Source: a phage
Direction: 5' to 3' (one strand)
NCBI GenBank assembly: GCA_016390365.1
Contig: GCA_016390365.1_3043.1
Length of the DNA: 64,000 nt
Shown: positions 8,560 through 61,416 of the stretch, piece by piece
How the letters are laid out: each line of letters starts with the position of its first letter
Numbering within the stretch: the stretch's first letter is position 1
Notes under the pieces: model-generated
Seen by the model: the letters and a program-made list of their open reading frames with translations, nothing else
The model's database searches: none
Told to the model about the DNA's origin: nothing
Program-made: the position numbers and the translations under genes

Positions 8560-8595
8560 ACCAGTTTACTTTCAATTTGAGCTGTGATACTATAC
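8560..8595 (+). promoter_or_regulatory. early promoter
   Basis: gtttac 8564-8569, 17-bp spacer, tgtgatactat. Confidence 0.5.
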
Positions 8596-8621
8596 AACCA
8601 TCGGATAAAGAGGAGAACATC

Positions 8622-10273: not shown

Positions 10274-10795
10274 ATGTTTATTTCAAGTGGAAGTGGTTTA
10301 ATTCGTGTTGAATTTAAAAATGACATCTTCCTTATTCAAGGAGATGATATTATTAAAATGAGTTATGATGAAATTAAGAAAATTTGTAATGCTCTTGAAA
10401 GTCATGGAAAAGTGAACGCTGTTATTGATATTGGTGATTTATGGGTGACACTTTATGAAGTATCCGAAGGATTTAATATTGAAGATGAAAACAACATCTT
10501 AGCTATTGATAAAAGAAGCGATTTGTTTGATGTGTTAAAAGTTTATGAACAGTCAAACGGTGGAAGAAAAGCTGTATTGATTTATCAAAAACCACATTCA
10601 TGTGGAACTGCTTCAATCATTTCAGATATTGAAGATGAAACTGATACTTATATGTGTGTTTTAAAAGCTGGTGGTGACCGTCATCCGGATTTTATTTCTA
10701 TTCGTCAAAACAATGGAGAAATTTCATTATCAAAATCAGAAGCTGAAGCTATGATTAAGTATTTAACAACTGTTACACCTTCAATGAAAGGATAA
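10274..10795 (+). CDS. hypothetical protein, paralog of the previous ORF
   Basis: 173-codon ORF with shared C-terminal motif. Confidence 0.55.
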   Translation: MFISSGSGLIRVEFKNDIFLIQGDDIIKMSYDEIKKICNALESHGKVNAVIDIGDLWVTLYEVSEGFNIEDENNILAIDKRSDLFDVLKVYEQSNGGRKAVLIYQKPHSCGTASIISDIEDETDTYMCVLKAGGDRHPDFISIRQNNGEISLSKSEAEAMIKYLTTVTPSMKG

Positions 10796-10797
10796 TT

Positions 10798-10998
10798 ATG
10801 ATTATTAATGAAAACTCTTGGCACTATAAATTATTCAAACTGTTTAACGACGAATGGAAACGACCTAAGACACTGTGTGCATACTTTTGGTCTATTGTTA
10901 TCCCTACATTTTTCGTTTCTTTTTTCGGATGTACTATACTCGCAGGTCTAACTATTATCTGTGCAGAAATCATACAGAAATGGCTTATTTTTTGGTAG
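10798..10998 (+). CDS. hypothetical membrane protein (N-terminal part, possible frameshifted gene)
   Basis: hydrophobic TM segment; ORF ends at a T6 run where the next frame continues. Confidence 0.4.
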   Translation: MIINENSWHYKLFKLFNDEWKRPKTLCAYFWSIVIPTFFVSFFGCTILAGLTIICAEIIQKWLIFW

Positions 10999-11260
10999 TT
11001 TATGGACTCTTATTCCATCAGCATTTATACTTGCCATTTTGCTTATTTTACTTATTATTGGTTCATTTGTTATTCCTGCACAACTGCATGAAAAATATAA
11101 AGATTATAAATGGAAAAAGGATTATGCTTTACATGTAGAAAATATTGATAGGGCGTATAAAGGTTTACCTCCTATTCAACCCAAGAAATCTATTATCGTC
11201 GAATTTTTAAAAGCGCGTAAAGCTAAAGTATGTCCTGTTATTGAATATAAGGCTGAATGA
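10961..11260 (+). CDS. hypothetical membrane protein (C-terminal part, possible frameshifted gene)
   Basis: no ATG (track start is GTG); strongly hydrophobic LIPSAFILAILLILLIIGSFVIP. Confidence 0.4.
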   Translation: MQKSYRNGLFFGSLWTLIPSAFILAILLILLIIGSFVIPAQLHEKYKDYKWKKDYALHVENIDRAYKGLPPIQPKKSIIVEFLKARKAKVCPVIEYKAE

Positions 11261-12270
11261 TGAAAACAGTAATGAAAAGCTATTTTGGTAGTCATCTTTA
11301 TGGAACTTCTACCCCAGAATCTGATGTAGATTTTAAAGAAATCTTTGTTCCTCCTGCTCGCGATATTCTTATCGGAAATGTCAAAGAGCACATGAGTAAA
11401 AACACTAACAACACATCATCTAAAAACACTAAAGATGATATTGACCATGAACTATACAGTCTTAAGTATTTCTTTAAATTAGCGGCAGATGGTGAAACTG
11501 TAGCGTTGGATATGCTTCACACTCCACCTGAACTAGTGGTTAAATCTGATTTGCCTGATGTGTGGAAGTTTATTCAAGACAACCGTTCTCGTTTTTATAC
11601 GACTAACATGAAATCATATTTAGGATATGTCCGCAAGCAAGCTTCTAAATACGGTGTCAAGGGTTCTCGTTTGGCTGCATTACGTGATGTATTGAAAGTA
11701 GTTAATCAAATCCCTGAGCAATGGGTTGATTACCAAGAAGATGGTTCTATTAAGCAGCGTCGTACTAAAGTTGAAGATATTAAGCATCGTCTTCCAGAAA
11801 ACGAATTCTGTGAATGGGTGTTCCATAATCATGAGAAAACAGGCCCACAAACGTTCTACACTGTGTTGGGTCGTAAATATCAGACAACTCTTTCTCTTAT
11901 TGAGCTTAAGCAGTCACTGAACAAATTAGATGCTGAATACGGTGAACGTGCTCGTAAGGCCGAAGCCAACGAAGGCATTGACTGGAAAGCTCTGAGCCAT
12001 GCTTGTCGTGGTGGACTTCAACTATTGGAAATTTACAAAACTGGTGACTTGGTTTATCCACTCCAAGATGCTCCATTTATTCTCGACGTGAAGTTGGGTA
12101 AGCATCCATTTAAAACAGTTCAAGAGTTTTTGGAAGATGTGGTCGATCAAGTAGAAGCAGCATCTACTGAAGCTTCTAAGAACGGTATGCAGCAAAAAGT
12201 AGACATGGGTTTCTGGGATGACTTCCTTGAGAAGGTTTATCTTGAAAACCACCGAAGTTATTATAAATGA
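11257..12270 (+). CDS. predicted nucleotidyltransferase (Pol-beta-like NTase fold)
   Basis: signature GS-x10-DVD in YFGSHLYGTSTPESDVDF. Confidence 0.6.
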   Translation: MMKTVMKSYFGSHLYGTSTPESDVDFKEIFVPPARDILIGNVKEHMSKNTNNTSSKNTKDDIDHELYSLKYFFKLAADGETVALDMLHTPPELVVKSDLPDVWKFIQDNRSRFYTTNMKSYLGYVRKQASKYGVKGSRLAALRDVLKVVNQIPEQWVDYQEDGSIKQRRTKVEDIKHRLPENEFCEWVFHNHEKTGPQTFYTVLGRKYQTTLSLIELKQSLNKLDAEYGERARKAEANEGIDWKALSHACRGGLQLLEIYKTGDLVYPLQDAPFILDVKLGKHPFKTVQEFLEDVVDQVEAASTEASKNGMQQKVDMGFWDDFLEKVYLENHRSYYK

Positions 12271-12272
12271 TA

Positions 12273-12298
12273 GGGAGCCTTCGGGCTCCCTTTTTTTT
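12273..12298 (+). terminator. rho-independent terminator, UUCG tetraloop
   Basis: gggagcc-ttcg-ggctccc followed by T8. Confidence 0.8.
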
Positions 12299-12319
12299 AT
12301 TTCAAAAATTTTTTCACAA

Positions 12320-12387
12320 AATTGTTTACAAGCATAAAGCTTTATGGTACTATACAACTATCAACTGATACGGATTTGGAGAATAAA
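12320..12387 (+). promoter_or_regulatory. early promoter plus conserved leader (PeSL-like cassette)
   Basis: gtttac 12324-12329; TGGTACTATACAACTATCAACT core; leader GATTTGGAGAATAAAATG shared with 38697..38745. Confidence 0.55.
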
Positions 12388-13356
12388 ATGAAAACTGTAA
12401 CTATCAATAAGGGTATTTACTTCGGTAAAGAAATCTCTGGAACTTTTGAGCTCTTAGGCGAATGGTTCCCAGATAATGCTCCAGTAGATGCACAAGGAGA
12501 TGGTAAAGTTTTTGTTGAAATTGACGGTAAACGTCGCGGTGTTTGGGTTTACAAATCAGACATTTCATATGATGGTGTAAAAGTTGAAGAAGTTAAAGAA
12601 TCGTATGAAGATATGAAAACCCGCATTAATAAAAGATTTAATGTTATGGGAATGATGACGAATGGTATTATTAACGGAAACATTCGTTCATTAATTATCT
12701 CTGGTGCGGCAGGCATTGGTAAAACGTATTCTTTAGATAAAGCTTTAAATAAAGCAAATGATATTGGATACATTGAATATAAAAGCATTAATGGTAAAAT
12801 CTCTGGTATTGGTCTTTATGAACAGCTTTGGAATAATCGTGAAGAGAATTCTGTCCTTTTGATTGATGATGTGGATGTTTTCTCTGATATGGACATTCTT
12901 AATCTTCTGAAAGCTGCTCTGGACACCGGAGAGACCCGTAAAGTCTGCTGGAGCACTGCGTCTTCTTACTTAGAAGAAAAAGGCATTGAGCGTGAGTTTG
13001 AATTTAAAGGAACGATTGTTTTTATCACAAACGTTGACATTGACCGCGAATTAGACCGTGGTACTAAACTTGCTCCACATTTACAAGCATTAGTGTCCCG
13101 CTCAGTTTATTTGGATTTGGGTGTTCACACTAATGAAGAAATTATGGTCAGGGTTGAAGATGTTATTCTTTCAACTGACATGATGCAAAAGCGCGGTCTT
13201 TCTGATGAAGAAACTTATAAAGCATTATCATGGATGAAAGTTAATGTTAATCGTTTACGCAATGTTTCACTGCGTACTGCTCTTTATCTTGCTGACTTTA
13301 TTATGACCGACAAAAACGGTTGGGAAGAAATTGCTGAGGTTACTCTTCTGAAATAA
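12388..13356 (+). CDS. AAA+/P-loop ATPase
   Basis: Walker A ISGAAGIGKT, Walker B VLLIDDVD, sensor-like FITN; start ATG 12388. Confidence 0.6.
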   Translation: MKTVTINKGIYFGKEISGTFELLGEWFPDNAPVDAQGDGKVFVEIDGKRRGVWVYKSDISYDGVKVEEVKESYEDMKTRINKRFNVMGMMTNGIINGNIRSLIISGAAGIGKTYSLDKALNKANDIGYIEYKSINGKISGIGLYEQLWNNREENSVLLIDDVDVFSDMDILNLLKAALDTGETRKVCWSTASSYLEEKGIEREFEFKGTIVFITNVDIDRELDRGTKLAPHLQALVSRSVYLDLGVHTNEEIMVRVEDVILSTDMMQKRGLSDEETYKALSWMKVNVNRLRNVSLRTALYLADFIMTDKNGWEEIAEVTLLK

Positions 13357-13454
13357 TTCATAAGAGGACTTCTATGACAAAAAGGCAGTTCAGAAATAGA
13401 TTATATGGACTGCCATTAAAAAGATGACTAGAATTAAACTGGTGAATGGAGGTA

Positions 13455-13760
13455 ATGATGTTATACTCAAAGGCTCGTGAAATTTACGAAACTAAAATTA
13501 AAGAAGCAGTATTTAAGTTCGCAACGACAATGCGATGGACAAATGACTGGGAGTATTCAAAAAATCATAAGAAGCCCATGGTGACAAGAAAGGCTCATAT
13601 GTTAGTGTTAATAGACCGTGAGCAGATTAAAGCCCGAGAAGCCCTCCAGAATCATAAAAAGGCTGCCTTTGAATGGTTTATGGATAACACTGCTCCTGAG
13701 ACTAAGAAAGCGGTAAGCGCATGGTTCAGTGGAAAAAATTGTGAAAGAAGTTTCTTTTAG
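13455..13760 (+). CDS. hypothetical protein
   Basis: start chosen at ATG 13455 after SD ggagg. Confidence 0.45.
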   Translation: MMLYSKAREIYETKIKEAVFKFATTMRWTNDWEYSKNHKKPMVTRKAHMLVLIDREQIKAREALQNHKKAAFEWFMDNTAPETKKAVSAWFSGKNCERSFF

Positions 13761-13805
13761 TGGTTTACAAGACTGTTCCTCTGTGGTACTATACAACTAT
13801 CAACT
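13760..13805 (+). promoter_or_regulatory. early promoter plus conserved core (PeSL-like cassette)
   Basis: gtttac 13764-13769; TGGTACTATACAACTATCAACT core 13784-13805. Confidence 0.5.
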
Positions 13806-13820
13806 ACGGAGGAACACAAA

Positions 13821-14348
13821 ATGAACGCTAAAGATATTTTCAACCTGGTAAATTACAACGATGGTAAATTTAAATCTGAAGCACAAAGCAAGTTCTTTAA
13901 TGACATCTCAATCGGAGGTGAAATCACGGTTGATGGAGGACAAATTTACAAATCTCGTTGGAATTGGATCGTTATTATCGATGAGATTGGTATTGTAGAA
14001 ATTTACAAGAATACGAATAAAAATCGTACATTACACTGGTCTCGTGATACTAACGAACAGTACAAAAAGGATAAAGCATCTAAATTATCTCGTGTAACTC
14101 AAGAAGATATTGAGTTCATCAAGAAAGATATTTTGATGTATGATAACTTAATTGCTGAAGAGCAAGCTGTTATTGATAAATTTGACGAGATTAAAGCTTC
14201 TCGTGAAATTCCTGATTTTATGAAAGAATCAGTAAATGAACGATACACTCTCATTTCAGAGCGTATTGAAACTTACAAAAAGCAAAGAGCTGAACGCCAG
14301 AATACTCTTCGGAAGTTTGAAGAACGGTTAAAGACGGTACTCGCATAA
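13821..14348 (+). CDS. hypothetical protein
   Basis: 175-codon ORF after SD ggagg. Confidence 0.5.
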   Translation: MNAKDIFNLVNYNDGKFKSEAQSKFFNDISIGGEITVDGGQIYKSRWNWIVIIDEIGIVEIYKNTNKNRTLHWSRDTNEQYKKDKASKLSRVTQEDIEFIKKDILMYDNLIAEEQAVIDKFDEIKASREIPDFMKESVNERYTLISERIETYKKQRAERQNTLRKFEERLKTVLA

Positions 14349-14403
14349 CCGCTTTATACCAAGGATGGTATAATGGTTCTAAGCCCTTTTAATTGAGATT
14401 ATT

Positions 14404-14811
14404 ATGAAACAGTTGATAATTAAAAGATTGAATTTATTGATATGTTGTTTATGTATAGTAATTGCATATGGTTATTACGCAATTAATGATTATATGCATT
14501 ATAAAGATTATGATGTTACTGTAGTTAATACCTTTACAGGAACTCAAGGAAAGGGGTCTAGTTTATCGTTTATTGCCGTATATGAACTAAATGACGGTTA
14601 TAGATTTAGCGAATATATTTCACCGGAGATGTATTCTTCAATAGAAAAAGGTGATAATATTACTGTAAGTTTACGTCCTTTCGACGTAAAACAGACATTG
14701 TTTGATAATATTGTTTGGTTCTTTGGAATGGTATTAGTTCAATCTGTGTGTGGTGCTTATATAGTCTGTTCCATCTTATTCTGTATATTTAGTAAAATTG
14801 AAATTGAGTGA
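14404..14811 (+). CDS. hypothetical membrane protein
   Basis: N-terminal and C-terminal hydrophobic segments. Confidence 0.45.
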   Translation: MKQLIIKRLNLLICCLCIVIAYGYYAINDYMHYKDYDVTVVNTFTGTQGKGSSLSFIAVYELNDGYRFSEYISPEMYSSIEKGDNITVSLRPFDVKQTLFDNIVWFFGMVLVQSVCGAYIVCSILFCIFSKIEIE

Positions 14812-14818
14812 GGAAAAT

Positions 14819-15706
14819 ATGTCAGTAGTAATTAATAATGTCAATGCAGTAATTAAATCTTTAGTTAATAAAAAATTGAATGAATGGACTGTACTTCGTC
14901 GTGGAGAGCCAGATAAATTTTTTCATAGATTTAACCCAACTTTGGATTTGAATGTTATTGACAGAGATGTTCATGCTGAAATATTAGATAAGTTTAAAGT
15001 TGATATTGGGTTTGGATTAGATAAACATTTACAACGAACAAACGGGTCTGGAATGGGTTTATCTAATCGCATCATGAAAGCCCTTAATAAAATTGGAGCG
15101 TTGTCTCGTATTAATGCGAGTGAAATCCTTCGCAATTATAATAAAGGATATGACCTTTATGGTCGACTAATGCCGAAATTATCATTCGATCAAATGATTG
15201 CGGATTTGTGGGAAAATCAACGACGATTATTAGCATTAGGCGCTCGATTAGCTAAAGGTCTAGATAAACAAATGATTTTTAAGACCAATAATACAGAAGA
15301 CCTTAAATGCTTTAAATTTAGTATTCGTGGCGATGATTATTATATCAGAGCTCACTCTACAGATTATGTTAATATGGGGCATCATCTCTGTTTAGCTTTT
15401 GAAGTTTTAAAAGAAGCCGGAACATTAGAATATTCATCTGGTGCAAAATGCCCTATTGGTTCAAGTTGTATTTTAATTTATCGCCCGGATGAATCCAGTT
15501 CAACTAAATTGCCTACAAAACCTGTACCAGTTCGTAGTAATGAAAAACATTCTGAGCAAATTGATTATTTTAATAAGCAAATTGAAGAGCTGAATATTTC
15601 TATTCAACAATATGATGATGAAATTTTCAGACTATCTGGACTGAGTAGTAAAGCTAAATCTGAGCGTGAAAAGTTAATTAAAATTATCGATTTACTTAAA
15701 TCTTAA
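14819..15706 (+). CDS. hypothetical protein with C-terminal coiled coil
   Basis: start ATG 14819 after SD gaggaaa; C-terminal heptad-like region. Confidence 0.5.
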   Translation: MSVVINNVNAVIKSLVNKKLNEWTVLRRGEPDKFFHRFNPTLDLNVIDRDVHAEILDKFKVDIGFGLDKHLQRTNGSGMGLSNRIMKALNKIGALSRINASEILRNYNKGYDLYGRLMPKLSFDQMIADLWENQRRLLALGARLAKGLDKQMIFKTNNTEDLKCFKFSIRGDDYYIRAHSTDYVNMGHHLCLAFEVLKEAGTLEYSSGAKCPIGSSCILIYRPDESSSTKLPTKPVPVRSNEKHSEQIDYFNKQIEELNISIQQYDDEIFRLSGLSSKAKSEREKLIKIIDLLKS

Positions 15707-15714
15707 GGAACACC

Positions 15715-16737
15715 ATGAAAACTCGTTCTCAAATTGAAGATATGGTTCGTAATGCCAGCTATACTCGTGATGCTATGACATTTTTGTGCGAAAATAATTT
15801 AGACCTTGGTAAAGTTAATTGTTCCATTCACGCCTTTAAACATCTGAACAGCAGTGAATGGGTGCGTAATTTTAATGAAGCTGGGTATATTACTCAAATG
15901 ACTGCTCGTGAACAGCTCACCGATTTCTGTAAAACTATTGATTATAAAAATCCTCTATTTGTTCAAGGTGTTGGTCAGAGTAAGGTCGATTTATCATCTG
16001 GATTTTTTAATCCAAATCATTATCGTCTTGAATGGAGATTTATTGCTCTATTCCGTAAACAATTAAAGCAAATTTTGTCGACGGCTAGTCGATTAAAAGG
16101 CTCTGATATTAACTTAAAGAATCTGAAATTTGATGGTTATACTCTTCAGATGGAAGTAAGACCGTTAAAAGAAAATAATAGAACTGCACGAATTAGCTTT
16201 AAGCCTAATACTAAAAATTCTCTTTCAATTTGTGAATGCCTTAAATCACAGTTGACAGAAGCATTTAAGTATATGGATGTAGTTGCCGTGGTTCAGTCTA
16301 AGATTTTACCTCATTTTGAGCGAAATTGGGAACATACAACAACGTATGAACTTGATATGATCGTTTCATTTAAATACGATTTTTTGAGAAAGGACGAAGT
16401 CCCGCAAGAGAAAAAGCAGGAAGTGCAAGATATCTTAAATTTATCCAATTACTCATCAAATGATCCTAAATTTTGGATGTATAGTTCAGGTAATAAAGAT
16501 ACATGGAAATTCAATAAAGTGAATTTTCTTCCTATTGAAAATCCGAGTCTTAAACCTGTTGAAAAATGGCACGCGGATGCGATTGAGAAGTCCCTTAAGG
16601 CAGTAGATGATGAACTCGTTAAAGCGACCAATGAAGTGTTAGAAGCTGAAAAGATGCTAGAAAAAGCACAAGAAAAAGTCAAAAATCTCACGAAGCAACG
16701 TTCTAAACTGAACAATGCATTAAATGCACTGAACTAG
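15715..16737 (+). CDS. hypothetical protein, member of tandem paralog family with C-terminal coiled coil
   Basis: MKTR N-terminus; internal motif RLEWRFIALFRKQLKQILSTASRL shared with 16795..17796. Confidence 0.55.
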   Translation: MKTRSQIEDMVRNASYTRDAMTFLCENNLDLGKVNCSIHAFKHLNSSEWVRNFNEAGYITQMTAREQLTDFCKTIDYKNPLFVQGVGQSKVDLSSGFFNPNHYRLEWRFIALFRKQLKQILSTASRLKGSDINLKNLKFDGYTLQMEVRPLKENNRTARISFKPNTKNSLSICECLKSQLTEAFKYMDVVAVVQSKILPHFERNWEHTTTYELDMIVSFKYDFLRKDEVPQEKKQEVQDILNLSNYSSNDPKFWMYSSGNKDTWKFNKVNFLPIENPSLKPVEKWHADAIEKSLKAVDDELVKATNEVLEAEKMLEKAQEKVKNLTKQRSKLNNALNALN

Positions 16738-16768
16738 TTTACTTTACCACAAGGATGTGGTATAATGT
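16735..16768 (+). promoter_or_regulatory. early promoter (30 nt identical to the copy at 61416)
   Basis: gtttac 16737-16742, 17-bp spacer, tgtggtataat. Confidence 0.6.
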
Positions 16769-16794
16769 TCTTACTTTCTACTGAGGAGATTATT

Positions 16795-17796
16795 ATGACT
16801 CGTAACGAATATATCAAATCATTCAATAGCGTTATTGATGATAAAGCTATACCGATGTTTGGTCAAAATATCGTTCTTTCTATTATCAATCAATGGCTCA
16901 ATAGTGTTGATGCAAGTATTGTTTCTTCTACTAAATTTATTCATGAAATTCGTAAAATTTCTAGCCGTGTAGATAAAGATGTTATCAAGAAAACCTTTAA
17001 AGAGTCTCGTCTTCTTTCATATTTGGTTAATCGGGATATTCTTGGTAATTTTGGGAAAGAAATTAAACGAACTAAAGATGTAGTAGGATATAATTGGTTC
17101 GGTGATGTTAATTCTTATCATCTCAATAATAAAGAAGACCCTGAGAATATTTTTACTCGTCGTTGGATTAGTAATTTCAGACTTTTCAAGAAGCAAATTC
17201 TAAAATCAGCTTCTAAATTATGTTATGGCGATTATCGTCAAATTCATCCTTTGGCTTCTGATATGATTATCATAAAAGAATATGAACTTGATAAAAATAA
17301 AGTAGCTATTTTTGTGAATTATGGATTTTTTACACCAGAAACTAACCAAAAGAACATTAATAAATTTTTCTCAATTGCTAGCACTATAACTCGTCAATTA
17401 GAGACCGCATTACTTTGTATGGAAACAGTAGAAAATATTCATACATATCCTTTTAAGAATATATGCGGTTGGGAAGGATATAAAATTGTAGTTAGTCTTC
17501 GTGAAGTGAAATGTACTTATTCACCTACTAGTAAAGAAATTTACCAACAAAAATGTGATGAAATTGTGAATACTCCTAAAGAAGAAACTACCCTTGAGGA
17601 ACTAATGGAATGTCTTGATGATTCACCTGAACCGGTAGAAATTCGTCCAGAAGTTATTGCACTAGAAAAAGCTTATAAAGAAGTTCTAGAAATTTCTAAT
17701 AAAGCGCAGAAAGAATATGAGCAGGCTAAAAGGATTTGGGAAGAATCTGTTAATCGCCTGGATCGTCTTGAACAAGCTTTACAGTTAATTAAGTAA
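16795..17796 (+). CDS. hypothetical protein, member of tandem paralog family with C-terminal coiled coil
   Basis: start ATG 16795 after SD gaggag (track ATG 16765 lies inside the promoter -10); motif FTRRWISNFRLFKKQILKSASKL. Confidence 0.55.
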   Translation: MTRNEYIKSFNSVIDDKAIPMFGQNIVLSIINQWLNSVDASIVSSTKFIHEIRKISSRVDKDVIKKTFKESRLLSYLVNRDILGNFGKEIKRTKDVVGYNWFGDVNSYHLNNKEDPENIFTRRWISNFRLFKKQILKSASKLCYGDYRQIHPLASDMIIIKEYELDKNKVAIFVNYGFFTPETNQKNINKFFSIASTITRQLETALLCMETVENIHTYPFKNICGWEGYKIVVSLREVKCTYSPTSKEIYQQKCDEIVNTPKEETTLEELMECLDDSPEPVEIRPEVIALEKAYKEVLEISNKAQKEYEQAKRIWEESVNRLDRLEQALQLIK

Positions 17797-17848
17797 TTTA
17801 AAGCCAAGGATGGCTCGGAGTATAAATCATTAACCAAGTGAGAAGAAC

Positions 17849-18778
17849 ATGAAAACTCGTAAACATTATATTGATTATTTTGACAGTCTTATTACTAAAC
17901 ATCGTAATTATCAGATAGGGCACAGAGCAGTAATCAATAATATTCTTCGTGATTTCCTTCAATATGTTGGCCAGGAAAATCATATCTGTAAAGATACTCA
18001 AAACGCTTATTCTCATTCGTTAGGCAATTTGCTTGAATGGTTTAAACGTTCTCGTATGTTATCTTCTACTGTAGCTCGCGATAACATTAAAAACTTTATG
18101 AAGCCGAGCTTCATTAAATCTGAGACATCTATAACCGATTTGGTTGAATTTACTATTGTTAACGATGTTAAAAAGACTCATTTGGCTGATTGGTTATCTA
18201 CCATTCCCGAAACTAAATTTGCTGATAAATTCGCTTGTCAATTCAATGACCAAGTGAATATGCTTTTTAAGCATGCTCGTAAACTATTTACCGCGGGCGA
18301 TGACCGTACAAATACAGTTCATGTTAAGGATTGGGTTATTGCTGATGAAGTAACACACAAGCCAGGTGGTTCATCAGTATTAATTAATATCCAGGTTCCT
18401 TATTATTACTCACGTAATCTCGGCACCATGACAGCTAGAGAAATTAATAAGCACAACAAAATTATTCGTTCGTTGTCTTATAAACTCTGCACGATGGTGG
18501 AGATGATGGACGTAGTGGAAATGTATGACGAAACCGAAGATAATGGTTCAATGCTGTACAGTTCACGCATTCTAATTAAACTGAAGAACCCTAATACATA
18601 TAAGCAAGTTGTAAAAGAACCTAAAGCAGAAAAGGCTGATAATCTGAGTGAAGAACGCGAATATCTCAATGCTCGTTTGATTGAAGTTGAAGCCCAAATT
18701 GCAGAACACACCAAATTGTTAAAAGCTCTTAATGCAAAAGCAAATGGTTTACGTAATGCTATTGAGGTATTGAAATGA
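17849..18778 (+). CDS. hypothetical protein, member of tandem paralog family with C-terminal coiled coil
   Basis: MKTRKHYIDYF N-terminus; C-terminal coiled coil EEREYLNARLIEVEAQIAEHTKLLKAL. Confidence 0.55.
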   Translation: MKTRKHYIDYFDSLITKHRNYQIGHRAVINNILRDFLQYVGQENHICKDTQNAYSHSLGNLLEWFKRSRMLSSTVARDNIKNFMKPSFIKSETSITDLVEFTIVNDVKKTHLADWLSTIPETKFADKFACQFNDQVNMLFKHARKLFTAGDDRTNTVHVKDWVIADEVTHKPGGSSVLINIQVPYYYSRNLGTMTAREINKHNKIIRSLSYKLCTMVEMMDVVEMYDETEDNGSMLYSSRILIKLKNPNTYKQVVKEPKAEKADNLSEEREYLNARLIEVEAQIAEHTKLLKALNAKANGLRNAIEVLK

Positions 18779-19089
18779 AAAAGCGTCTATTAGAAGACAT
18801 TGCAGCTTCAAGTAATTCCAGTTTAATTAAAATTATTATGGCCGGTGAAGAAGACGATTTGGAAATGCGTGGAAAGATTCATGGTTGTGATGATTATAGC
18901 AGCCCTATTAATTGGGATTCTGTAATGGTCATGGTTGAACGCCGCGAACGTGCTTCTAAAAACGTTCCTAATTGCCCTGAATGTGGAACTGAACAGGTGC
19001 AATTGGTCCATTGGCAGACTAGTAATCTTCGTTATAAATGTCGCCATTGTAAACACCGATTTGACCGAGAAGAAAATGACAAAGCGTAA
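18775..19089 (+). CDS. hypothetical zinc-ribbon protein
   Basis: CPECG...CRHCKH C-terminal CxxC pair. Confidence 0.5.
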
Positions 19090-19318
19090 AGAATATATGG
19101 AGGCTGCTGAAAAGGCAGTCCGTGAATTAGCAATAGCTTATTATAATGAACACGGTAAATTTCCTGATAGATACAGCGTGCTTAAATCTGCTTTAACTCG
19201 TTCATATAAAAATATGCTATCAGAAGTAAGTGATATTATATACAAACATAAAGAACAAACAGGCCAAAGTCTTGATTACGACGAGACTTTTAAACAAGTA
19301 TTAGGAATTAAGGAATAA
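19076..19318 (+). CDS. hypothetical protein
   Basis: start ATG 19076 (MTKRKEY), overlaps upstream stop. Confidence 0.45.
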
Positions 19319-19319
19319 T

Positions 19320-19583
19320 ATGTTTAAAGTATATGGTTATGATAGCAACATCCACAAATGCGTGTATTGCGATAATGCAAAACGTCTTTTGACCGTGAAG
19401 AAACAGCCGTTTGAATTTATCAACATTATGCCGGAAAAAGGTGTTTTTGATGATGAGAAAATCGCTGAGCTTCTGACTAAACTAGGTCGTGATACTCAAA
19501 TCGGCTTAACAGTGCCTCAGGTATTTGCTCCTGATGGAAGTCATATTGGTGGATTTGACCAATTGCGGGAATACTTTAAATGA
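19320..19583 (+). CDS. nrdC: thioredoxin/glutaredoxin NrdC
   Basis: 87 aa MFKVYGYDSNIHKCVYCDNAKRLL with CVYC active site, matches recalled T4 NrdC. Confidence 0.95.
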   Translation: MFKVYGYDSNIHKCVYCDNAKRLLTVKKQPFEFINIMPEKGVFDDEKIAELLTKLGRDTQIGLTVPQVFAPDGSHIGGFDQLREYFK

Positions 19584-19795
19584 TGCTCGAAGGAACTGAT
19601 TATATCCATGATTACCGCGGAAGCGCGGTATATGTAGGTGATGAAGTTGCAGTTTACTATGGGTATGGAACTTTAATGACAGCCAAGGTTATTCAAATTA
19701 AAAATAACCGTGCTAAACTCGAAGTTTATTATTCTAATGGCGAAAAGTCTATTTCTAAGTGGAAATACGGCGATTGCATGGTCAAACTGGGGTAA
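19580..19795 (+). CDS. hypothetical protein
   Basis: 71-codon ORF, ATGA coupling. Confidence 0.45.
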   Translation: MMLEGTDYIHDYRGSAVYVGDEVAVYYGYGTLMTAKVIQIKNNRAKLEVYYSNGEKSISKWKYGDCMVKLG

Positions 19796-21305: not shown

Positions 21306-23119
21306 CAATTGAAAAAGAAATTGAAGGATTGATTCATAAAACTAATAAAGACCTTTTAAACGAGAATGCTAATAAAGATTCTCGTGTTTTTCCAACTCAA
21401 CGGGACCTTATGGCTGGTATTGTGTCTAAACACATTGCCAAAAATATGGTCCCGTCTTTTATTATGAAAGCGCATGAAAGCGGAATTATTCATTTCCATG
21501 ATATTGATTATTCCCCTGCTCTCCCATTTACTAATTGCTGTTTAGTAGATTTAAAAGGAATGCTTGAAAACGGATTTAAGCTAGGTAATGCGCAGATTGA
21601 AACTCCTAAATCAATTGGCGTTGCTACTGCAATTATGGCGCAAATTACTGCGCAAGTTGCTTCCCATCAATACGGCGGAACGACTTTTGCGAATGTAGAT
21701 AAAGTACTTTCTCCTTATGTTAAACGCACCTATGCAAAACATATTGAGGATGCAGAAAAATGGCAAATCGCTGATGCGTTGAATTATGCTCAATCTAAAA
21801 CAGAAAAAGACGTATACGATGCATTTCAAGCTTATGAATATGAAGTAAACACTCTCTTTAGTTCAAACGGACAAACGCCTTTTGTAACAATTACATTTGG
21901 TACGGGAACTGACTGGACTGAACGAATGATTCAGAAAGCAATTCTGAAAAATCGTATTAAAGGTCTTGGTCGTGATGGGATAACTCCTATTTTCCCTAAG
22001 CTTGTTATGTTTGTTGAAGAAGGTGTTAATCTTTATAAAGACGATCCGAACTATGATATTAAGCAGCTTGCTCTAGAGTGCGCAAGCAAAAGAATGTATC
22101 CTGATATTATTTCAGCTAAGAACAATAAAGCTATCACCGGTTCATCTATTCCTGTTTCTCCGATGGGTTGCCGTAGTTTCTTGAGCGTATGGAAAGATTC
22201 GACTGGTAATGAAATTCTTGATGGACGTAATAATCTTGGTGTTGTAACACTGAATCTTCCTCGTATCGCATTAGATTCTTATATTGGAACACAGTTCAAT
22301 GAACAGAAATTTATCGAATTGTTCAATGAGCGAATGGATTTATGTTTTGAAGCTTTGATGTGTAGAATTAGTTCATTAAAAGGAGTTAAAGCGACTGTTG
22401 CTCCTATTCTTTACCAAGAAGGTGCATTCGGGGTTCGTCTTAAACCTGATGACGACATAATTGAGTTATTTAAAAACGGTAGAAGTTCAGTGTCCCTAGG
22501 ATACATTGGTATTCACGAATTGAATATTCTTGTCGGTCGTGATATTGGACAGGAAATTTTAACTAAAATGAATGCTCGTCTTAAACAGTGGACTGAAAGA
22601 ACCGGTTTTGCTTTTAGCTTGTATTCTACTCCCGCTGAAAACCTTTGTTATCGCTTCTGTAAACTTGATACTGAAAAATATGGAAGTGTAAAAGATGTTA
22701 CTGATAAAGGCTGGTACACTAATAGTTTCCATGTTTCAGTAGAAGAAAATATTACTCCGTTTGAAAAGATTTCTCGCGAAGCCCCATATCATTTCATTGC
22801 GACAGGTGGTCACATTTCTTATGTTGAACTTCCTGATATGAAAAATAACCTAAAAGGTCTTGAGGCTGTCTGGGATTATGCTGCACAACATTTAGATTAT
22901 TTTGGTGTTAATATGCCAGTAGATAAATGTTTTACATGTGGAAGTACCCATGAAATGACTCCTACTGAAAACGGATTTGTTTGTTCTATTTGTGGAGAAA
23001 CTGATCCTAAAAAGATGAACACAATAAGAAGAACATGTGGTTATTTGGGAAATCCGAACGAACGCGGATTTAATCTCGGCAAAAATAAAGAAATCATGCA
23101 TAGGGTTAAGCATCAATGA
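21302..23119 (+). CDS. nrdD: anaerobic ribonucleoside-triphosphate reductase NrdD
   Basis: 605 aa continuous ORF; C-terminal zinc site CFTCGSTHE...CSICG and glycyl-radical region RRTCGYLG. Confidence 0.95.
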   Translation: MTIEKEIEGLIHKTNKDLLNENANKDSRVFPTQRDLMAGIVSKHIAKNMVPSFIMKAHESGIIHFHDIDYSPALPFTNCCLVDLKGMLENGFKLGNAQIETPKSIGVATAIMAQITAQVASHQYGGTTFANVDKVLSPYVKRTYAKHIEDAEKWQIADALNYAQSKTEKDVYDAFQAYEYEVNTLFSSNGQTPFVTITFGTGTDWTERMIQKAILKNRIKGLGRDGITPIFPKLVMFVEEGVNLYKDDPNYDIKQLALECASKRMYPDIISAKNNKAITGSSIPVSPMGCRSFLSVWKDSTGNEILDGRNNLGVVTLNLPRIALDSYIGTQFNEQKFIELFNERMDLCFEALMCRISSLKGVKATVAPILYQEGAFGVRLKPDDDIIELFKNGRSSVSLGYIGIHELNILVGRDIGQEILTKMNARLKQWTERTGFAFSLYSTPAENLCYRFCKLDTEKYGSVKDVTDKGWYTNSFHVSVEENITPFEKISREAPYHFIATGGHISYVELPDMKNNLKGLEAVWDYAAQHLDYFGVNMPVDKCFTCGSTHEMTPTENGFVCSICGETDPKKMNTIRRTCGYLGNPNERGFNLGKNKEIMHRVKHQ

Positions 23120-23586
23120 ATTATGACAGAATATACCCGTGCTGCTTCGTGAATGGCCCTGGATGCAGGACCGTTCTTTTCGTTACAGGTTGTTTGCATA
23201 AATGCGAAGGGTGTTATAATAAATCAACATGGAATGCTAGAAATGGTATTCCATTTACTGGTGAAACACTAGAACAATTAATTGAATGTTTGAATAATGA
23301 TTATATAGAAGGATTAACTATAACTGGAGGAGACCCTCTTTATCCTGATAACAGAGACGTGATTCATTGCATTGTTCAAACAGTAAAAAATCTTTATCCC
23401 AATAAAAGCATTTGGTTGTGGACAGGATATAAATTTGAAGATATTAAACAACTAGAAATGCTTAAATATGTTGATGTTATTATTGATGGGAAGTATGAGA
23501 AAAATCTTCCGACTAAAAAGCTGTGGCGAGGATCAGATAATCAGCGGCTTTGGTCAAATACCGATGGGGTGTGGAAACATGATTAA
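23116..23586 (+). CDS. nrdG: anaerobic RNR activating enzyme NrdG (radical SAM)
   Basis: 156 aa with Cys cluster CRTVLFVTGCLHKCEGC. Confidence 0.9.
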   Translation: MNYDRIYPCCFVNGPGCRTVLFVTGCLHKCEGCYNKSTWNARNGIPFTGETLEQLIECLNNDYIEGLTITGGDPLYPDNRDVIHCIVQTVKNLYPNKSIWLWTGYKFEDIKQLEMLKYVDVIIDGKYEKNLPTKKLWRGSDNQRLWSNTDGVWKHD

Positions 23587-27906: not shown

Positions 27907-27930
27907 AAACCAAAACAAAGAGGATATTAA

Positions 27931-29133
27931 ATGAAAGTATGTATTTTTATGGCTCGAGGTCTTGAAGGTTGTGGTGTAACAAAATTCTCACTCGAGCAAC
28001 GTGATTGGTTTATTAAAAATGGTCATGAAGTGACTTTGGTTTATGCTAAAGATAAATCATTTACTCGTAATTGCGCGCATGATTATAAATCATTTTCAAT
28101 TCCGGTTTTATTGGCAAAAGAATATGATAAAACACTTAAGCTGGTAAATGATTGTGATATTCTAATTATCAATTCAGTTCCTGCTACTTCGGTTGAAGAA
28201 GACACGATTAATAACTATAAAAAAATTATTGATAACATTAAACCTTCTGTTCGTGTTGTAGTTTATCAACATGACCATTCTTCTCTTTCTTTGCGTCGAA
28301 ATTTGGGATTAGAAGAAACTGTTCGTCGAGCTGATGTTATTTTTAGCCATTCTGATAATGGTGATTTTAATAAAGTTCTGATGAAAGAATGGTATCCTGA
28401 AACAGTTTCTCTGTTTGATGATATTGAAGAAGCACCGACAGTATATAACTTTCAGCCTCCTATGGATATTGCGAAGGTTCGGTCAACCTACTGGAAAGAT
28501 GTTTCTGAAATTAACATGAATATCAACCGTTGGATTGGTCGTACGACCACATGGAAAGGTTTTTATCAGATGTTTGATTTTCATGAAAAACATCTTAAAC
28601 CTGCAGGACTAAGTACTATTATGGAAGGTCTGGAACGTTCTCCAGCGTTCATTCCTATTAAAGAAAAAGGAATTCCATACGAGTATTATCGTCTTCATCA
28701 AGTAGACCAAATTAAAATTGCTCCTAATTTGCCAACGCAAATTCTTGACCGTTATGTAAATAGCGAAATGCTTGAACGTATGAGTAAATCCGGTTTTGGT
28801 TATCAGTTGAGTAAGTTGGATAAAAAATATCTACAACGTTCTTTAGAATATACTCATCTCGAGCTTGGTGCATGTGGAACAATTCCGGTATTTTGGAAAT
28901 CTACTGGCGAAAATTTAAAATTCCGTGTTGATAATACTCCTTTGACCTCGCATGATAGCGGTATCATTTGGTTTGATGAAAATGACATGGAATCAACATT
29001 TGAACGTATTAAAGAACTGTCATCTGACCGAACTCTTTATGACCGCGAACGCGAAAAAGCTTATGAATTTTTGTATCAGCATCAAGATTCAAGCTTCTGC
29101 TTTAAAGAACAGTTTGACATTATTACAAAATAA
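27931..29133 (+). CDS. agt: DNA alpha-glucosyltransferase
   Basis: 400 aa; N-terminus ICIFMARGLEGCGVTKFSLEQRDWFIKNGHEV matches recalled T4 alpha-gt. Confidence 0.9.
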   Translation: MKVCIFMARGLEGCGVTKFSLEQRDWFIKNGHEVTLVYAKDKSFTRNCAHDYKSFSIPVLLAKEYDKTLKLVNDCDILIINSVPATSVEEDTINNYKKIIDNIKPSVRVVVYQHDHSSLSLRRNLGLEETVRRADVIFSHSDNGDFNKVLMKEWYPETVSLFDDIEEAPTVYNFQPPMDIAKVRSTYWKDVSEINMNINRWIGRTTTWKGFYQMFDFHEKHLKPAGLSTIMEGLERSPAFIPIKEKGIPYEYYRLHQVDQIKIAPNLPTQILDRYVNSEMLERMSKSGFGYQLSKLDKKYLQRSLEYTHLELGACGTIPVFWKSTGENLKFRVDNTPLTSHDSGIIWFDENDMESTFERIKELSSDRTLYDREREKAYEFLYQHQDSSFCFKEQFDIITK

Positions 29134-38571: not shown

Positions 38572-38593
38572 AGGGACCTCCGGGTCCCTTTTT
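38572..38593 (+). terminator. rho-independent terminator
   Basis: gggacc-tccg-ggtccc followed by T5. Confidence 0.8.
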
Positions 38594-38671
38594 CATACAA
38601 GTAATATAAATCTATACTTAGGAAAAATAGATGATTCTGGACCCTTTGGATTCATTAAAATTTTTTCACAA

Positions 38672-38742
38672 AACTGTTTACATCCCTGTTCTTCCATGGT
38701 ACTATACAACTATCAACTACTGATACAGATTTGGAGAATAAA
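38672..38742 (+). promoter_or_regulatory. early promoter plus conserved leader (PeSL-like cassette)
   Basis: gtttac 38676-38681; core TGGTACTATACAACTATCAACT and leader GATTTGGAGAATAAAATGAAAA shared with 12345..12392. Confidence 0.55.
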
Positions 38743-38979
38743 ATGAAAATTGTTATGGGATGCTTAGCAGTTTGTTTAGTTGCATTAGCAGCAGTTCCAT
38801 TTGTTAGTGTTGAAAATGATACTCAACCTGTGATTGAATCTAGCACTGTTATTCACACTAATGGTAAAATATCAGTTAAAATTGATGATAATCTTCATGC
38901 GAATACAAATGGATCTTTAGGTGTGCAAATGGGTAATACCTGCATAAGCACTACTGGAGTAATTACTACTTGCATTTGA
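38743..38979 (+). CDS. hypothetical secreted small protein
   Basis: start ATG 38743; signal peptide MKIVMGCLAVCLVALAAVPFVSV. Confidence 0.5.
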   Translation: MKIVMGCLAVCLVALAAVPFVSVENDTQPVIESSTVIHTNGKISVKIDDNLHANTNGSLGVQMGNTCISTTGVITTCI

Positions 38980-38989
38980 GGAAATTATT

Positions 38990-39370
38990 ATGAAAATCGC
39001 TATTTTGGTTATTGCATTAGGTCTTACTGGTTGTGTAGCTCAAGGACCGGTAGTAAATCAGTCTGATGTAGGAAAAATTGTAAACTGTTCAAGCAAGTTT
39101 TATAATCCTAATGTCAAGTGTTATAAAGAAGCTCCAAAACAGACAGTAGAACAAATGCAGGCGAATTTTGACGAAGCTATTCGTCCAGATGAATCTGCTC
39201 AAGCATATCGTAATTCTGATGTAATTACACGCGAAGAAAAAATTGAAAACTACTGCGCCGAAATTTGGGCTAATTGGGCTAATAATTACCAATGGCGTAC
39301 TGGTAAAAATGCTCCGATGGAGTATGTAGTGAATTCTTATAATTCATGTGTAAAAAATTTGACTAAGTGA
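38990..39370 (+). CDS. hypothetical lipoprotein
   Basis: signal peptide with lipobox LTGC (MKIAILVIALGLTGC). Confidence 0.55.
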   Translation: MKIAILVIALGLTGCVAQGPVVNQSDVGKIVNCSSKFYNPNVKCYKEAPKQTVEQMQANFDEAIRPDESAQAYRNSDVITREEKIENYCAEIWANWANNYQWRTGKNAPMEYVVNSYNSCVKNLTK

Positions 39371-47705: not shown

Positions 47706-48224
47706 ATGGCATACTTTAATGAATGTTCACAACTGATTGAAGGCGCTGATAAAGCTCAAAATGAATACTGGGATATTCTCGGTGATGAAAAAGACCCGTT
47801 GCAAGTTATGCTTGATATGCAGAAATCTCTGCAGGTTCGTTTAGCTAAAGATAAACCTGAATATAACCGTCATCCTGATGATTTGGCTACTGCGGGTGAA
47901 GTTGTTGATTGGCTGCGTAATCAGAAAGATTATATTGATGATGAATTCCGCGAACTATTGACTTCTCTTGGTGGTATGAGCAATGGTGAAAAAGATGCAT
48001 CTGCTGTATGGAAGCCTTGGAAAGCTCAACATGGTGAACGACGTGAAACTCTGATTACTGATTTGTCTCCACAAGACCAGTTGGAAATTAAATTCGAAAT
48101 GATTGATATTCTTCATTTCGTTCTGAACATGTTCCAAGGCCTCGGTCTTACGGCTGAAGAAATCTTTAAACTTTATTATCTGAAAAATGCTGAAAACTTC
48201 GCTCGTCAAGACCGAGGTTATTAA
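47706..48224 (+). CDS. 56: dCTPase/dUTPase gp56
   Basis: 172 aa from ATG 47706 (MAYFNECSQLIEGADKAQNEYWDILGDEKDP), matches recalled T4 gp56. Confidence 0.9.
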   Translation: MAYFNECSQLIEGADKAQNEYWDILGDEKDPLQVMLDMQKSLQVRLAKDKPEYNRHPDDLATAGEVVDWLRNQKDYIDDEFRELLTSLGGMSNGEKDASAVWKPWKAQHGERRETLITDLSPQDQLEIKFEMIDILHFVLNMFQGLGLTAEEIFKLYYLKNAENFARQDRGY

Positions 48225-48424
48225 TGGCTCGTTTAAATAAACGCCAGCTTAAGAAAGCCCACAAGAAACGTATTGACCAGCTATTTAAAAATTATGACAA
48301 GGAGCTCACATACGAGCTCTTATCTAATCAGCTTCGTGTAGTTGATTGGGGTGTAGAAGAAGGTCTTGATGAAATTTTTGTCAGTAAAGAAGCCTTAAAA
48401 TTAATTATAGAGCATTCAAAATGA
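48224..48424 (+). CDS. hypothetical basic small protein
   Basis: 66-codon ORF, TAATG coupling to 56. Confidence 0.45.
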   Translation: MARLNKRQLKKAHKKRIDQLFKNYDKELTYELLSNQLRVVDWGVEEGLDEIFVSKEALKLIIEHSK

Positions 48425-48594
48425 AAATATCCAAAGAAGAATTTATTAGACGACAAAAAGCTTTAATTAATTTATACGAGTGGTATGCCTATCAACTTAA
48501 AGTAGATAGCTCTAATATAAATGCTGTAATGGCTTTATATAAACAAATTCAAGATGAACACGAATTCCTGGCACAAGTTTTCATTGAAGACTGA
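48421..48594 (+). CDS. hypothetical small protein
   Basis: 57-aa ORF MKISKEEFIRRQKAL; not in track. Confidence 0.4.
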   Translation: MKISKEEFIRRQKALINLYEWYAYQLKVDSSNINAVMALYKQIQDEHEFLAQVFIED

Positions 48595-48602
48595 TATAAA
48601 TA
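48595..48602 (+). promoter_or_regulatory. late-promoter box TATAAATA upstream of soc
   Basis: exact TATAAATA about 30 nt upstream of ATG 48634. Confidence 0.5.
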
Positions 48603-57904: not shown

Positions 57905-57934
57905 AGTTTAAAATTTTTTCATAAAACTATATAC

Positions 57935-58004
57935 ATCAGTAGTTGATTATGGTACTATATCAATATCAACTACTGATATAGAAAATAATTTGGAGAATAA
58001 AATG
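57935..58004 (+). repeat. PeSL-like cassette with 13-bp perfect inverted repeat and orphan start
   Basis: atcagtagttgat ... atcaactactgat flank tatggtactatat; leader TTTGGAGAATAAAATG followed by only an 11-codon ORF. Confidence 0.55.
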
Positions 58005-58076
58005 GAAAATTTGCCAAAGGTGCTGCTACTCTTCTGAAACGCATCGCTCCAATGTTCAATTAACGAGGAAATTGTA

Positions 58077-59552: not shown

Positions 59553-59598
59553 ATGATTACCGGAGTATAATATTCCCGAAACCAAACGAGGATAAGTG

Positions 59599-61416
59599 AT
59601 GATTAAGAATGAAATTAAAATTCTGAGCGATATTGAACATATCAAAAAGCGTAGCGGCATGTATATTGGCTCTTCTGCTAATGAAATGCATGAGCGCTTT
59701 CTGTTTGGTAAATGGGAAAGTGTTCAGTATGTACCTGGTCTTGTTAAGCTTATTGATGAAATTATCGATAACTCAGTAGATGAAGGTATTCGTACTAAGT
59801 TTAAATTCGCAAATAAAATTAATGTTACTATTAAAAACAATCAAGTAACAGTTGAAGATAACGGTCGCGGTATTCCACAAGCGATGGTTAAAACACCTAC
59901 CGGTGAAGAAATTCCTGGTCCTGTTGCTGCATGGACTATTCCAAAAGCAGGTGGTAACTTTGGTGATGATAAAGAACGCGTCACTGGCGGTATGAATGGT
60001 GTTGGTTCTAGTTTGACAAACATTTTTTCTGTGATGTTTGTCGGTGAAACTGGTGATGGTCAAAATAATATTGTAGTTCGTTGTTCAAATGGCATGGAAA
60101 ATAAATCATGGGAAGATATTCCTGGAAAATGGAAAGGAACTCGTGTTACTTTCATTCCTGATTTTATGTCATTTGAAACTAATGAGCTGTCCCAAGTTTA
60201 TCTTGACATTACACTAGATCGTCTCCAGACACTTGCAGTAGTTTATCCTGATATTCAATTTACCTTTAATGGTAAAAAGGTTCAGGGCAATTTTAAGAAA
60301 TATGCACGCCAATATGATGAGCATGCTATTGTTCAAGAACAAGAAAATTGCTCTATTGCGGTTGGTCGTTCACCGGATGGTTTTCGTCAATTAACTTATG
60401 TGAATAACATTCACACTAAGAATGGTGGCCATCACATTGACTGTGTTATGGATGATATTTGTGAAGACCTTATTCCACAAATCAAACGTAAGTTCAAAAT
60501 TGATGTGACTAAAGCACGCGTTAAAGAATGTTTGACTATCGTTATGTTTGTCCGTGATATGAAAAACATGCGATTTGATTCTCAAACTAAAGAGCGTTTG
60601 ACTTCTCCATTTGGCGAAATTCGTAGTCATATTCAACTCGACGCTAAAAAGATTTCACGCGCTATTCTAAATAATGAAGCAATTCTGATGCCGATTATTG
60701 AAGCTGCACTAGCTCGTAAATTGGCGGCGGAAAAGGCAGCAGAAACTAAAGCAGCTAAAAAGGCTTCTAAAGCTAAGGTTCATAAACATATTAAAGCGAA
60801 TCTTTGTGGTAAAGATGCTGACACTACTCTTTTCTTGACTGAGGGTGATTCGGCTATCGGATATCTTATTGATGTTCGTGATAAAGAACTTCACGGTGGT
60901 TATCCATTACGTGGTAAAGTTCTCAACAGTTGGGGTATGTCTTATGCAGATATGCTTAAAAACAAAGAACTATTTGATATTTGCGCAATCACTGGATTAG
61001 TTCTCGGTGAAAAAGCTGAAAACTTGAATTATCATAATATCGCTATTATGACTGATGCTGACCATGATGGCCTAGGAAGCATTTATCCTTCTCTGCTTGG
61101 ATTTTTTAGTAATTGGCCAGAACTGTTTGAGCAAGGACGAATTCGCTTTGTCAAAACTCCTGTAATCATCGCACAGATTGGTAAAAAACAAGAATGGTTT
61201 TATACAGTCGCTGAATATGAGAGTGCTAAAGATGCTCTACCTAAACATAGCATCCGTTATATTAAAGGACTTGGCTCTTTGGAAAAATCTGAATATCGTG
61301 AGATGATTCAAAATCCAGTATATGATGTTGTTAAACTTCCTGAGAATTGGAAAGAGCTTTTTGAAATGCTCATGGGAGATAATGCTGACCTTCGTAAAGA
61401 ATGGATGAGCCAGTAG
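59599..61416 (+). CDS. 39: DNA topoisomerase II large subunit gp39 (GyrB-like ATPase), unsplit form
   Basis: 605 aa continuous; GHKL ATPase and Toprim motifs (EGDSA); no separate gene 60. Confidence 0.95.
   Translation: MIKNEIKILSDIEHIKKRSGMYIGSSANEMHERFLFGKWESVQYVPGLVKLIDEIIDNSVDEGIRTKFKFANKINVTIKNNQVTVEDNGRGIPQAMVKTPTGEEIPGPVAAWTIPKAGGNFGDDKERVTGGMNGVGSSLTNIFSVMFVGETGDGQNNIVVRCSNGMENKSWEDIPGKWKGTRVTFIPDFMSFETNELSQVYLDITLDRLQTLAVVYPDIQFTFNGKKVQGNFKKYARQYDEHAIVQEQENCSIAVGRSPDGFRQLTYVNNIHTKNGGHHIDCVMDDICEDLIPQIKRKFKIDVTKARVKECLTIVMFVRDMKNMRFDSQTKERLTSPFGEIRSHIQLDAKKISRAILNNEAILMPIIEAALARKLAAEKAAETKAAKKASKAKVHKHIKANLCGKDADTTLFLTEGDSAIGYLIDVRDKELHGGYPLRGKVLNSWGMSYADMLKNKELFDICAITGLVLGEKAENLNYHNIAIMTDADHDGLGSIYPSLLGFFSNWPELFEQGRIRFVKTPVIIAQIGKKQEWFYTVAEYESAKDALPKHSIRYIKGLGSLEKSEYREMIQNPVYDVVKLPENWKELFEMLMGDNADLRKEWMSQ

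Follow-up and report, generated by a model that had tools for sequence, protein, structure and literature searches.

Early promoters of a Tequatrovirus phage as probable long-standing PeSL-type cassettes, with accessory ORFs polymorphic behind three of four

The recurrence of one short sequence ahead of unrelated genes raises the question of whether its copies are mobile regulatory cassettes that shuffle gene modules or simply conserved promoters, and of what keeps them alike. The window analysed here, a 64,000-nt stretch of phage DNA (GenBank assembly GCA_016390365.1, contig GCA_016390365.1_3043.1), carries the 22-mer TGGTACTATACAACTATCAACT exactly on its + strand at 12345-12366, 13784-13805 and 38697-38718, together with a variant at 57950-57971, TGGTACTATATCAATATCAACT, that has three mismatches. 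All four had been listed in a preliminary description of this DNA and were recovered by a motif search of the window, while 100 dinucleotide-preserving shuffles of the window gave no match to the core; the 22-base motif is real and highly non-random. A relaxed search found a fifth, degenerate + strand copy with five mismatches (TGATACTATACAACCATCGGAT, 8585-8606), upstream of which lies a terminator-like hairpin, GTCTCCTTCGGGAGAC.

The window is approximately 98% identical to many Tequatrovirus genomes, and its + strand is colinear with the minus strand of T4 from 67766 down to 1, which is the direction of T4 early transcription. On these alignments, the window is DNA of a T4-like phage, Tequatrovirus. 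The genome-wide and between-phage motif search that had been proposed as a check placed all four cores at the homologous T4 sites on the minus strand (55363, 53922, 27059 and 6609), where they precede nrdC.10, nrdC.8, imm.1 and cef; the degenerate copy has its T4 equivalent at 58759. Genome-wide, T4 holds six exact copies of the core and 12 with at most five mismatches, all on the early-transcribed strand. The 12 sit upstream of ndd.6, ndd.4, motA, frd.3, trna.4 (just downstream of ipI), e.8, denV, rI.-1, nrdC.10, nrdC.8, imm.1 and cef, as annotated in record AF158101, which carries no promoter features. When T4 was scanned with the pattern GTTTAC-N18-TAnnnT followed by a Shine-Dalgarno sequence and ATG, 36 sites were found, a few of which, inside coding sequence, are probably false positives, and the number of core mismatches across them ran continuously from 0 to 17. 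Because the mismatch counts are continuous, we read the core not as an element apart but as the version, close to consensus, in which the −10 and first transcribed stretch of T4 early promoters most often occur. Recent duplication of the core copies was rejected, since every copy stands at an orthologous T4 site and those of nrdC.10 and nrdC.8 are also present in a Mosigvirus.

A consensus scan located TTTACA-17-TACTAT with an upstream TG at 12325-12353, 13764-13792 and 38677-38705. The first cassette, upstream of nrdC.10 (12300-12390, + strand; the same sequence stands at T4 55363), consists of the UP-like tract AAAAATTTTTTCACAAAA, the −35 TTTACA (12325-12330), a 17-bp spacer, TGG plus the −10 TACTAT (12345-12353), the 22-nt core (12345-12366) and the leader GGAGAATAAAA (12378-12388), with the ATG at 12388; transcription would start near 12360. 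The second, upstream of nrdC.8 (13763-13823, + strand; T4 equivalent 53922), has GTTTACA at 13763-13769, TACTAT at 13787-13792, its core at 13784-13805 and the leader ACGGAGGAACACAAAATG before the ATG at 13821. Its −35 begins 3 nt past the nrdC.9 stop, and its weaker UP tract lies inside the nrdC.9 coding sequence. The third, at the imm.1 site right after the gene 43 terminator (38654-38745, + strand; T4 equivalent 27059), comprises the UP-like tract AAAATTTTTTCACAAAA, TTTACA (38677-38682), TACTAT (38700-38705), the core (38697-38718), GGAGAATAAAA (38733-38743) and the ATG at 38743. The fourth, variant cassette, between motB and cef (57909-58004, + strand; the same at T4 6609), contains the UP-like tract AAAATTTTTTCATAAAA, a degenerate −35, TATACA (57930-57935), TGG plus TACTAT (57950-57958), the variant core (57950-57971), GGAGAATAAAA (57992-58002) and the ATG at 58002. 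Owing to its −35, this last copy falls below the 9/12 sigma-70 consensus threshold of the scan, while TGG-TACTAT and the UP tract are kept. The preliminary description had placed each copy downstream of GTTTAC, which holds for three (12324, 13763 and 38676) but not for copy 57950, where the corresponding sequence is ATATACA. A clear A/T-rich upstream tract occurs in three of the four cassettes, copies 12345 and 38697 having AAAATTTTTTCACAAAA(T/C)TGTTTACA in common, and a Shine-Dalgarno sequence with the ATG of the downstream ORF closes the 3′ end of all four.

T4 early promoters are composed of UP, −35, TGn and −10 elements (PMC2988021, PMC1524935), and those described by Hinton (2010, PMC2988021) and Nolan et al. 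(2006, PMC1524935) coincide with the window's in genome position and sequence; they likewise have GTTTAC at −36 to −31, a TGn-extended −10, an A-rich UP tract and extra conserved positions beyond the canonical elements. Nothing essential differs from T4, the window having a few substitutions, for example in the imm.1-site spacer, and an extra ORF behind that copy. By position and sequence, the four sites are orthologues of sigma-70 T4 early promoters, for which promoter activity is predicted. Host sigma-70 RNA polymerase would bind the A/T-rich UP-like tract, the (G)TTTACA −35 and the TGn-extended TACTAT −10, and transcription would begin about 7 nt downstream of the −10, within the conserved core.

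Each cassette also includes a stem-loop, in one of two layouts. Copies 12345 and 38697 have an upstream GC-rich terminator: the first is the intrinsic terminator ending nrdC.11 (12272-12291, + strand), identified by terminator scan and folding, in which an 8-bp GC-rich stem is followed by a T-run (−16.2 kcal/mol, z −3.65) and which we count as the stem-loop part of cassette 1; the other is the intrinsic terminator after gene 43, the DNA polymerase gene (38572-38589, + strand; −13.9 kcal/mol, z −3.86), about 88 nt upstream of the cassette 3 −35. Copies 13784 and 57950 have instead a hairpin that encloses the −10 box. In cassette 2, upstream of which the terminator scan found no terminator, the hairpin has a 14-bp stem (13774-13787 with 13803-13816; −20.2 kcal/mol, z −4.84) whose 3′ arm lies over the Shine-Dalgarno GGAGG; in cassette 4, 57935-57947 pairs with 57965-57977 (−20.2 kcal/mol, z −5.03). 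These two hairpins were considered as intrinsic terminators and judged unlikely to be such, having no T-run past the 3′ arm. In either layout, the stem-loop may insulate the unit against read-through transcription.

This combination corresponds to the promoter-early stem-loop (PeSL) cassettes reported from RB49/phi1 (Arbiol et al. 2010, PMC2839356) and from PST/T4 and nt-1/KVP40 (Comeau et al. 2014, PMC4122927). As far as the PeSL passages of these papers go, the cassettes of the window are built from the same parts (AT-rich tract, sigma-70-like early promoter, stem-loop, Shine-Dalgarno sequence and ATG); for the T4/PST pair, the promoter is given there as TTTACW-N17-TAYWAT (PMC4122927), and both stem-loop placements are described, the upstream one by Comeau et al. 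(PMC4122927). The earlier label of PeSL-like was well chosen, as each copy has the early promoter, the Shine-Dalgarno sequence with ATG and the stem-loop, and fits the PeSLs of RB49/phi1 and T4/PST in those passages.

A leader common to copies 12345 and 38697, running through the start codons of unrelated genes, had also been claimed, and it is indeed present: the two have ACTGATAC(G/A)GATTTGGAGAATAAAATGAAAA in common at a 3-nt offset, with 34/45 identities after the 3-nt shift and a 22-nt exact run ending in ATGAAAA. Neither leader has significant structure (z +0.63 and +0.19). The strong intergenic RegB/S1 cleavage site has the consensus GG*AGRAYARAA (PMC3014915; Uzan and Miller 2010), and GGAGAATAAAA matches it at 11/11 positions and overlaps the Shine-Dalgarno sequence in three copies. 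Across the 64-kb window, GGAGRAYARAA has exactly three matches (12378, 38733 and 57992), where 0.39 would be expected by chance and no shuffle gave three; all are cassette leaders, and the last base of each is the A of the start codon. Another early promoter of the window (4371) has regB itself behind it. A single site serving for both ribosome binding and RegB would account for the identity of leaders between unrelated genes, and the three start regions are likely RegB-controlled, with cleavage predicted. We propose that, because the Shine-Dalgarno sequence doubles as a RegB site, the downstream gene would be expressed in an immediate burst, followed by inactivation of its mRNA. The consensus is that of the RegB/S1 sites in T4 early translation-initiation regions, here likewise overlapping the Shine-Dalgarno sequences of early-promoter genes. 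The PeSL passages of PMC2839356 and PMC4122927 do not mention a RegB/S1 match in the leader.

The preliminary description further held that the cassettes mark recently exchanged modules at 12388-13356, 13821-14348 and 38743-39370, adding that downstream genes conserved and syntenic in all relatives would make them ordinary promoters. The first of these modules is the nrdC.10 homologue (322 aa, + strand), with weak AAA/STAND NTPase matches, and the second is the nrdC.8 homologue (175 aa, + strand); both are conserved and syntenic. The block 11256-19584 is 93% identical to T4 with no rearrangement, 495 Tequatrovirus records match 80% or more of 12000-14400 at a single location, nrdC.9 and nrdC.8 stand equally far apart in T2, AV122, FL33 and IME537, and a Mosigvirus keeps the order nrdC.11, nrdC.10, nrdC.9, nrdC.8 with promoters at the same two positions. 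Judged from this colinearity, nrdC.10 and nrdC.8 are not recent arrivals. The third module proved to be not one unit but two ORFs on the + strand. The distal one, the imm.1 homologue (38990-39370; DUF5481), has its own Shine-Dalgarno sequence, GAGGAAATTATTATG, and is conserved. The proximal one, a 78-aa ORF with a hydrophobic N-terminus (38743-38979; phrog_4189) between cassette 3 and imm.1, has no copy in T4 and is replaced in T2-type phages, so that the idea of exchange survives for this ORF and not for imm.1, and synteny behind the cassette holds for nrdC.10 and nrdC.8 but not here.

Among relatives, three of the four sites (nrdC.10, imm.1 and cef) are in fact polymorphic just behind the cassette. 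The nrdC.10 site is empty in the window and in T4 and filled in about one third of the sampled Tequatrovirus genomes, by a 50-aa ORF plus a DUF4031 gene (G9062-type), a 161-aa ORF (T2) or a 66-aa ORF (AV122). Each time the site is filled, a second promoter precedes nrdC.10, so that two promoter cassettes flank the G9062 insert and, in T2, where the second promoter is part of a second terminator-promoter unit, two full units flank the 161-aa ORF. As other genera of Tevenvirinae widely carry the DUF4031 gene, the vacancy in the window may reflect a loss there rather than a gain of nrdC.10. At the imm.1 site there are three alleles, the 78-aa ORF (326/536 records), an unrelated 83-aa ORF (T2-type, 31 records) and none (T4), all with the same core upstream and the same GAGGAAATTATTATG of imm.1 downstream; besides its 31 Tequatrovirus records, the 83-aa ORF occurs in seven Dhakavirus records at 54% identity. 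By tblastn, the 78-aa ORF was found in one place per record in its 326 records, with no copies seen at other loci, its context being examined in a few genomes. At the cef site, AR1 and about 40% of the sampled genomes have an intact 89-aa ORF (phrog_3720), and the window has an 11-codon remnant of it, MENLPKVLLLF* (58002-58037, + strand), frameshifted by a 208-bp internal deletion at an AAAATT microhomology that T4 shares; no second cassette took part in that deletion.

What keeps the copies alike is the harder question. If they were ordinary conserved promoters and nothing else, selection for promoter strength and for a RegB-sensitive ribosome-binding site would explain their identity, and they would have no part in module exchange. 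The synteny of nrdC.10 and nrdC.8 agrees with this, as do the 14-nt spacers of copies 12345 and 38697, which are unrelated although the functional parts on either side match, the pattern expected from selection alone for this pair. Searching IMG/VR for the exact core yielded 21 matches in eight T4-like contigs, too few for statistics, in which the spacers are mostly locus-specific labels across phages, so that most copies would have been inherited vertically. Nor do breakpoints gather at the cassettes: of the 21 places where the window and T4 differ in structure, one is bounded inside a cassette against 1.15 expected (P ~0.69), in a permutation of 21 gaps against 18 promoter intervals from one genome pair, with two gaps touching if the interval is widened by 5 nt. 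Since breakpoints are not enriched, the idea that cassettes chiefly drove the window and T4 apart is unsupported; many of the other gaps fall at T4 homing-endonuclease genes (mobD, I-TevII, mobC, mobB, segA, segF and mobA). In this the window departs from PeSLs as their published passages present them, its copies being mostly stable orthologous fixtures with no breakpoint enrichment in the one comparison, that with T4.

Selection on known signals nevertheless falls short at several non-homologous loci, where the likeness extends over the spacer, which holds no known signal. The T4 promoters of nrdC.10 and frd.3 have a 58-nt exact run in common, spacer included; the window nrdC.8 promoter and the T2 imm.1-site promoter are identical over 63 nt, from GTTTAC through ATGAA; and window copy 38697 matches the T4 e.8 promoter at 73/74 positions, again across the spacer. 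The imm.1 site is itself mosaic: across T4, the window, KFS-EC3 and T2, spacer and leader are combined in four ways, which implies crossovers within the conserved −35 and core segments. In Mosigvirus p000y, the nrdC.10 and nrdC.8 promoters (L016 870-990 and 2385-2455) have the core TGTTATTATAGACCTATC in common, with the same four diagnostic substitutions in both cassettes relative to both Tequatrovirus cassettes, which suggests concerted evolution of paralogous promoters; the p000y nrdC.10 leader retains GGAGAATAAAATG. Mini-circles between PeSLs have been shown experimentally in RB49/phi1, according to the PeSL part of that study (PMC2839356). Together with the G9062 and T2 inserts that lie between two cassettes, these patterns indicate that both selection and occasional recombination within cassettes operate, the latter by a putative mechanism, and make promoter conservation on its own an unlikely account. 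That mobile cassettes recently delivered nrdC.10, nrdC.8 and the 38743-39370 block into this genome is far less probable still: the true presence, absence and replacement of the ORF directly behind cassette 3 and the variable position adjoining the nrdC.10 cassette in other phages would suit it, but the nrdC.10-nrdC.9-nrdC.8 order and its cassettes are the same in T4, T2, ~495 Tequatrovirus records and a Mosigvirus, imm.1 is conserved too, and the window's vacant DUF4031 position looks like a loss.

We therefore consider it highly probable that the four T4 early promoters are PeSL-type cassettes and old fixtures of their loci, whose likeness is kept by selection together with occasional recombination. 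Selection would act on all of their signals, homologous recombination or gene conversion between copies would now and then add to the similarity, and the same recombination would make the position behind a cassette a spot where small accessory ORFs may be gained, lost or swapped. The morons of lambdoid phages (promoter-gene-terminator) are likewise small accessory ORFs with their own promoter and terminator between conserved genes. Moron flanks, according to the relevant passage of PMC2839356, do not consist of conserved repeats and are not credited with mediating insertion, whereas those in the window belong to a conserved repeat family.

A further property of these promoters concerns the spacer itself. 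The 18-nt promoter spacer is far more complementary to its own leader than to the leaders of other promoters, with cognate and non-cognate means of −11.7 and −7.5 kcal/mol for 16 promoters in the window and −11.5 and −7.0 kcal/mol for 31 in T4; 0/10000 permutations reached the observed cognate mean in either set. The pairing forms a hairpin with the −10 box in its loop, and the 3′ arm covers the Shine-Dalgarno sequence for regB, nrdC.8, denV and promoter 56223. Complementary spacer/leader promoters have their −35 at 1268, 4371, 9376, 13763, 44395, 56223 and 57930, with equivalents in T4. An RNA carries the two hairpin arms together only if it reads through from upstream. By analogy with T4 genes e, soc and 49 (PMC3014915), such transcripts may have their Shine-Dalgarno sequence masked. 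It is conceivable, though we would not favour it at present, that the cassettes are promoter-dependent RNA switches, in which read-through RNA would have its Shine-Dalgarno sequence and GGAG sequestered and be untranslated and protected from RegB, and RNA started within the cassette itself would be open, available for translation and sensitive to RegB. If true, this would extend the logic known for e, soc and 49 to early promoters and would account for the tendency of particular spacers to go with particular leaders.

Several other differences from T4 were noted along the window. At 1312-1319 (T4 66454-65359), ipIII and ipII are absent (~1.1 kb), and directly after the lysozyme gene e come one early promoter and denV, the breakpoint falling inside the promoter leader; we take this site to be the classic variable IP locus. 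A single continuous ORF of ~606 aa (59596-61416) encodes the topoisomerase large subunit, the window lacking, at 61016-61081 (T4 3911-2793), the mobA remnant, gene 60.1, the 39/60 split and the 50-nt gene 60 bypass segment. Homing-endonuclease elements of T4 are missing at gaps 21837-21840, 23116-23135, 27915-27940, 10292-11256 and 48187-48595, namely the I-TevII intron in nrdD, mobC, mobB, mobD and segF. In place of mobD, between mobD.1 and nrdC.11 (10274-11260), stand three ORFs of 173, 66 and 99 aa for which megablast and blastn found no T4 counterpart. In FL33 (L013 1354-2073) and IME537 (L014 1781-2500), nrdC.10 and nrdC.9 are separated by an inserted homing-endonuclease gene, which makes for a second kind of variation in the nrdC region that is independent of the cassettes.

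In conclusion, both this kind of element and its presence in T4 and close relatives have already been published, and the result is a rediscovery, from raw sequence, of a feature of T4-type phages rather than a new kind of element. For annotation, it delimits four early transcription units, three start regions that are likely RegB-controlled and three positions for accessory ORFs. What it adds is modest: the shared leader matches the strong RegB/S1 site, one locus has three alleles together with probable crossovers inside its cassette, and nrdC.10 and nrdC.8, on the comparisons made here, are not recent acquisitions.
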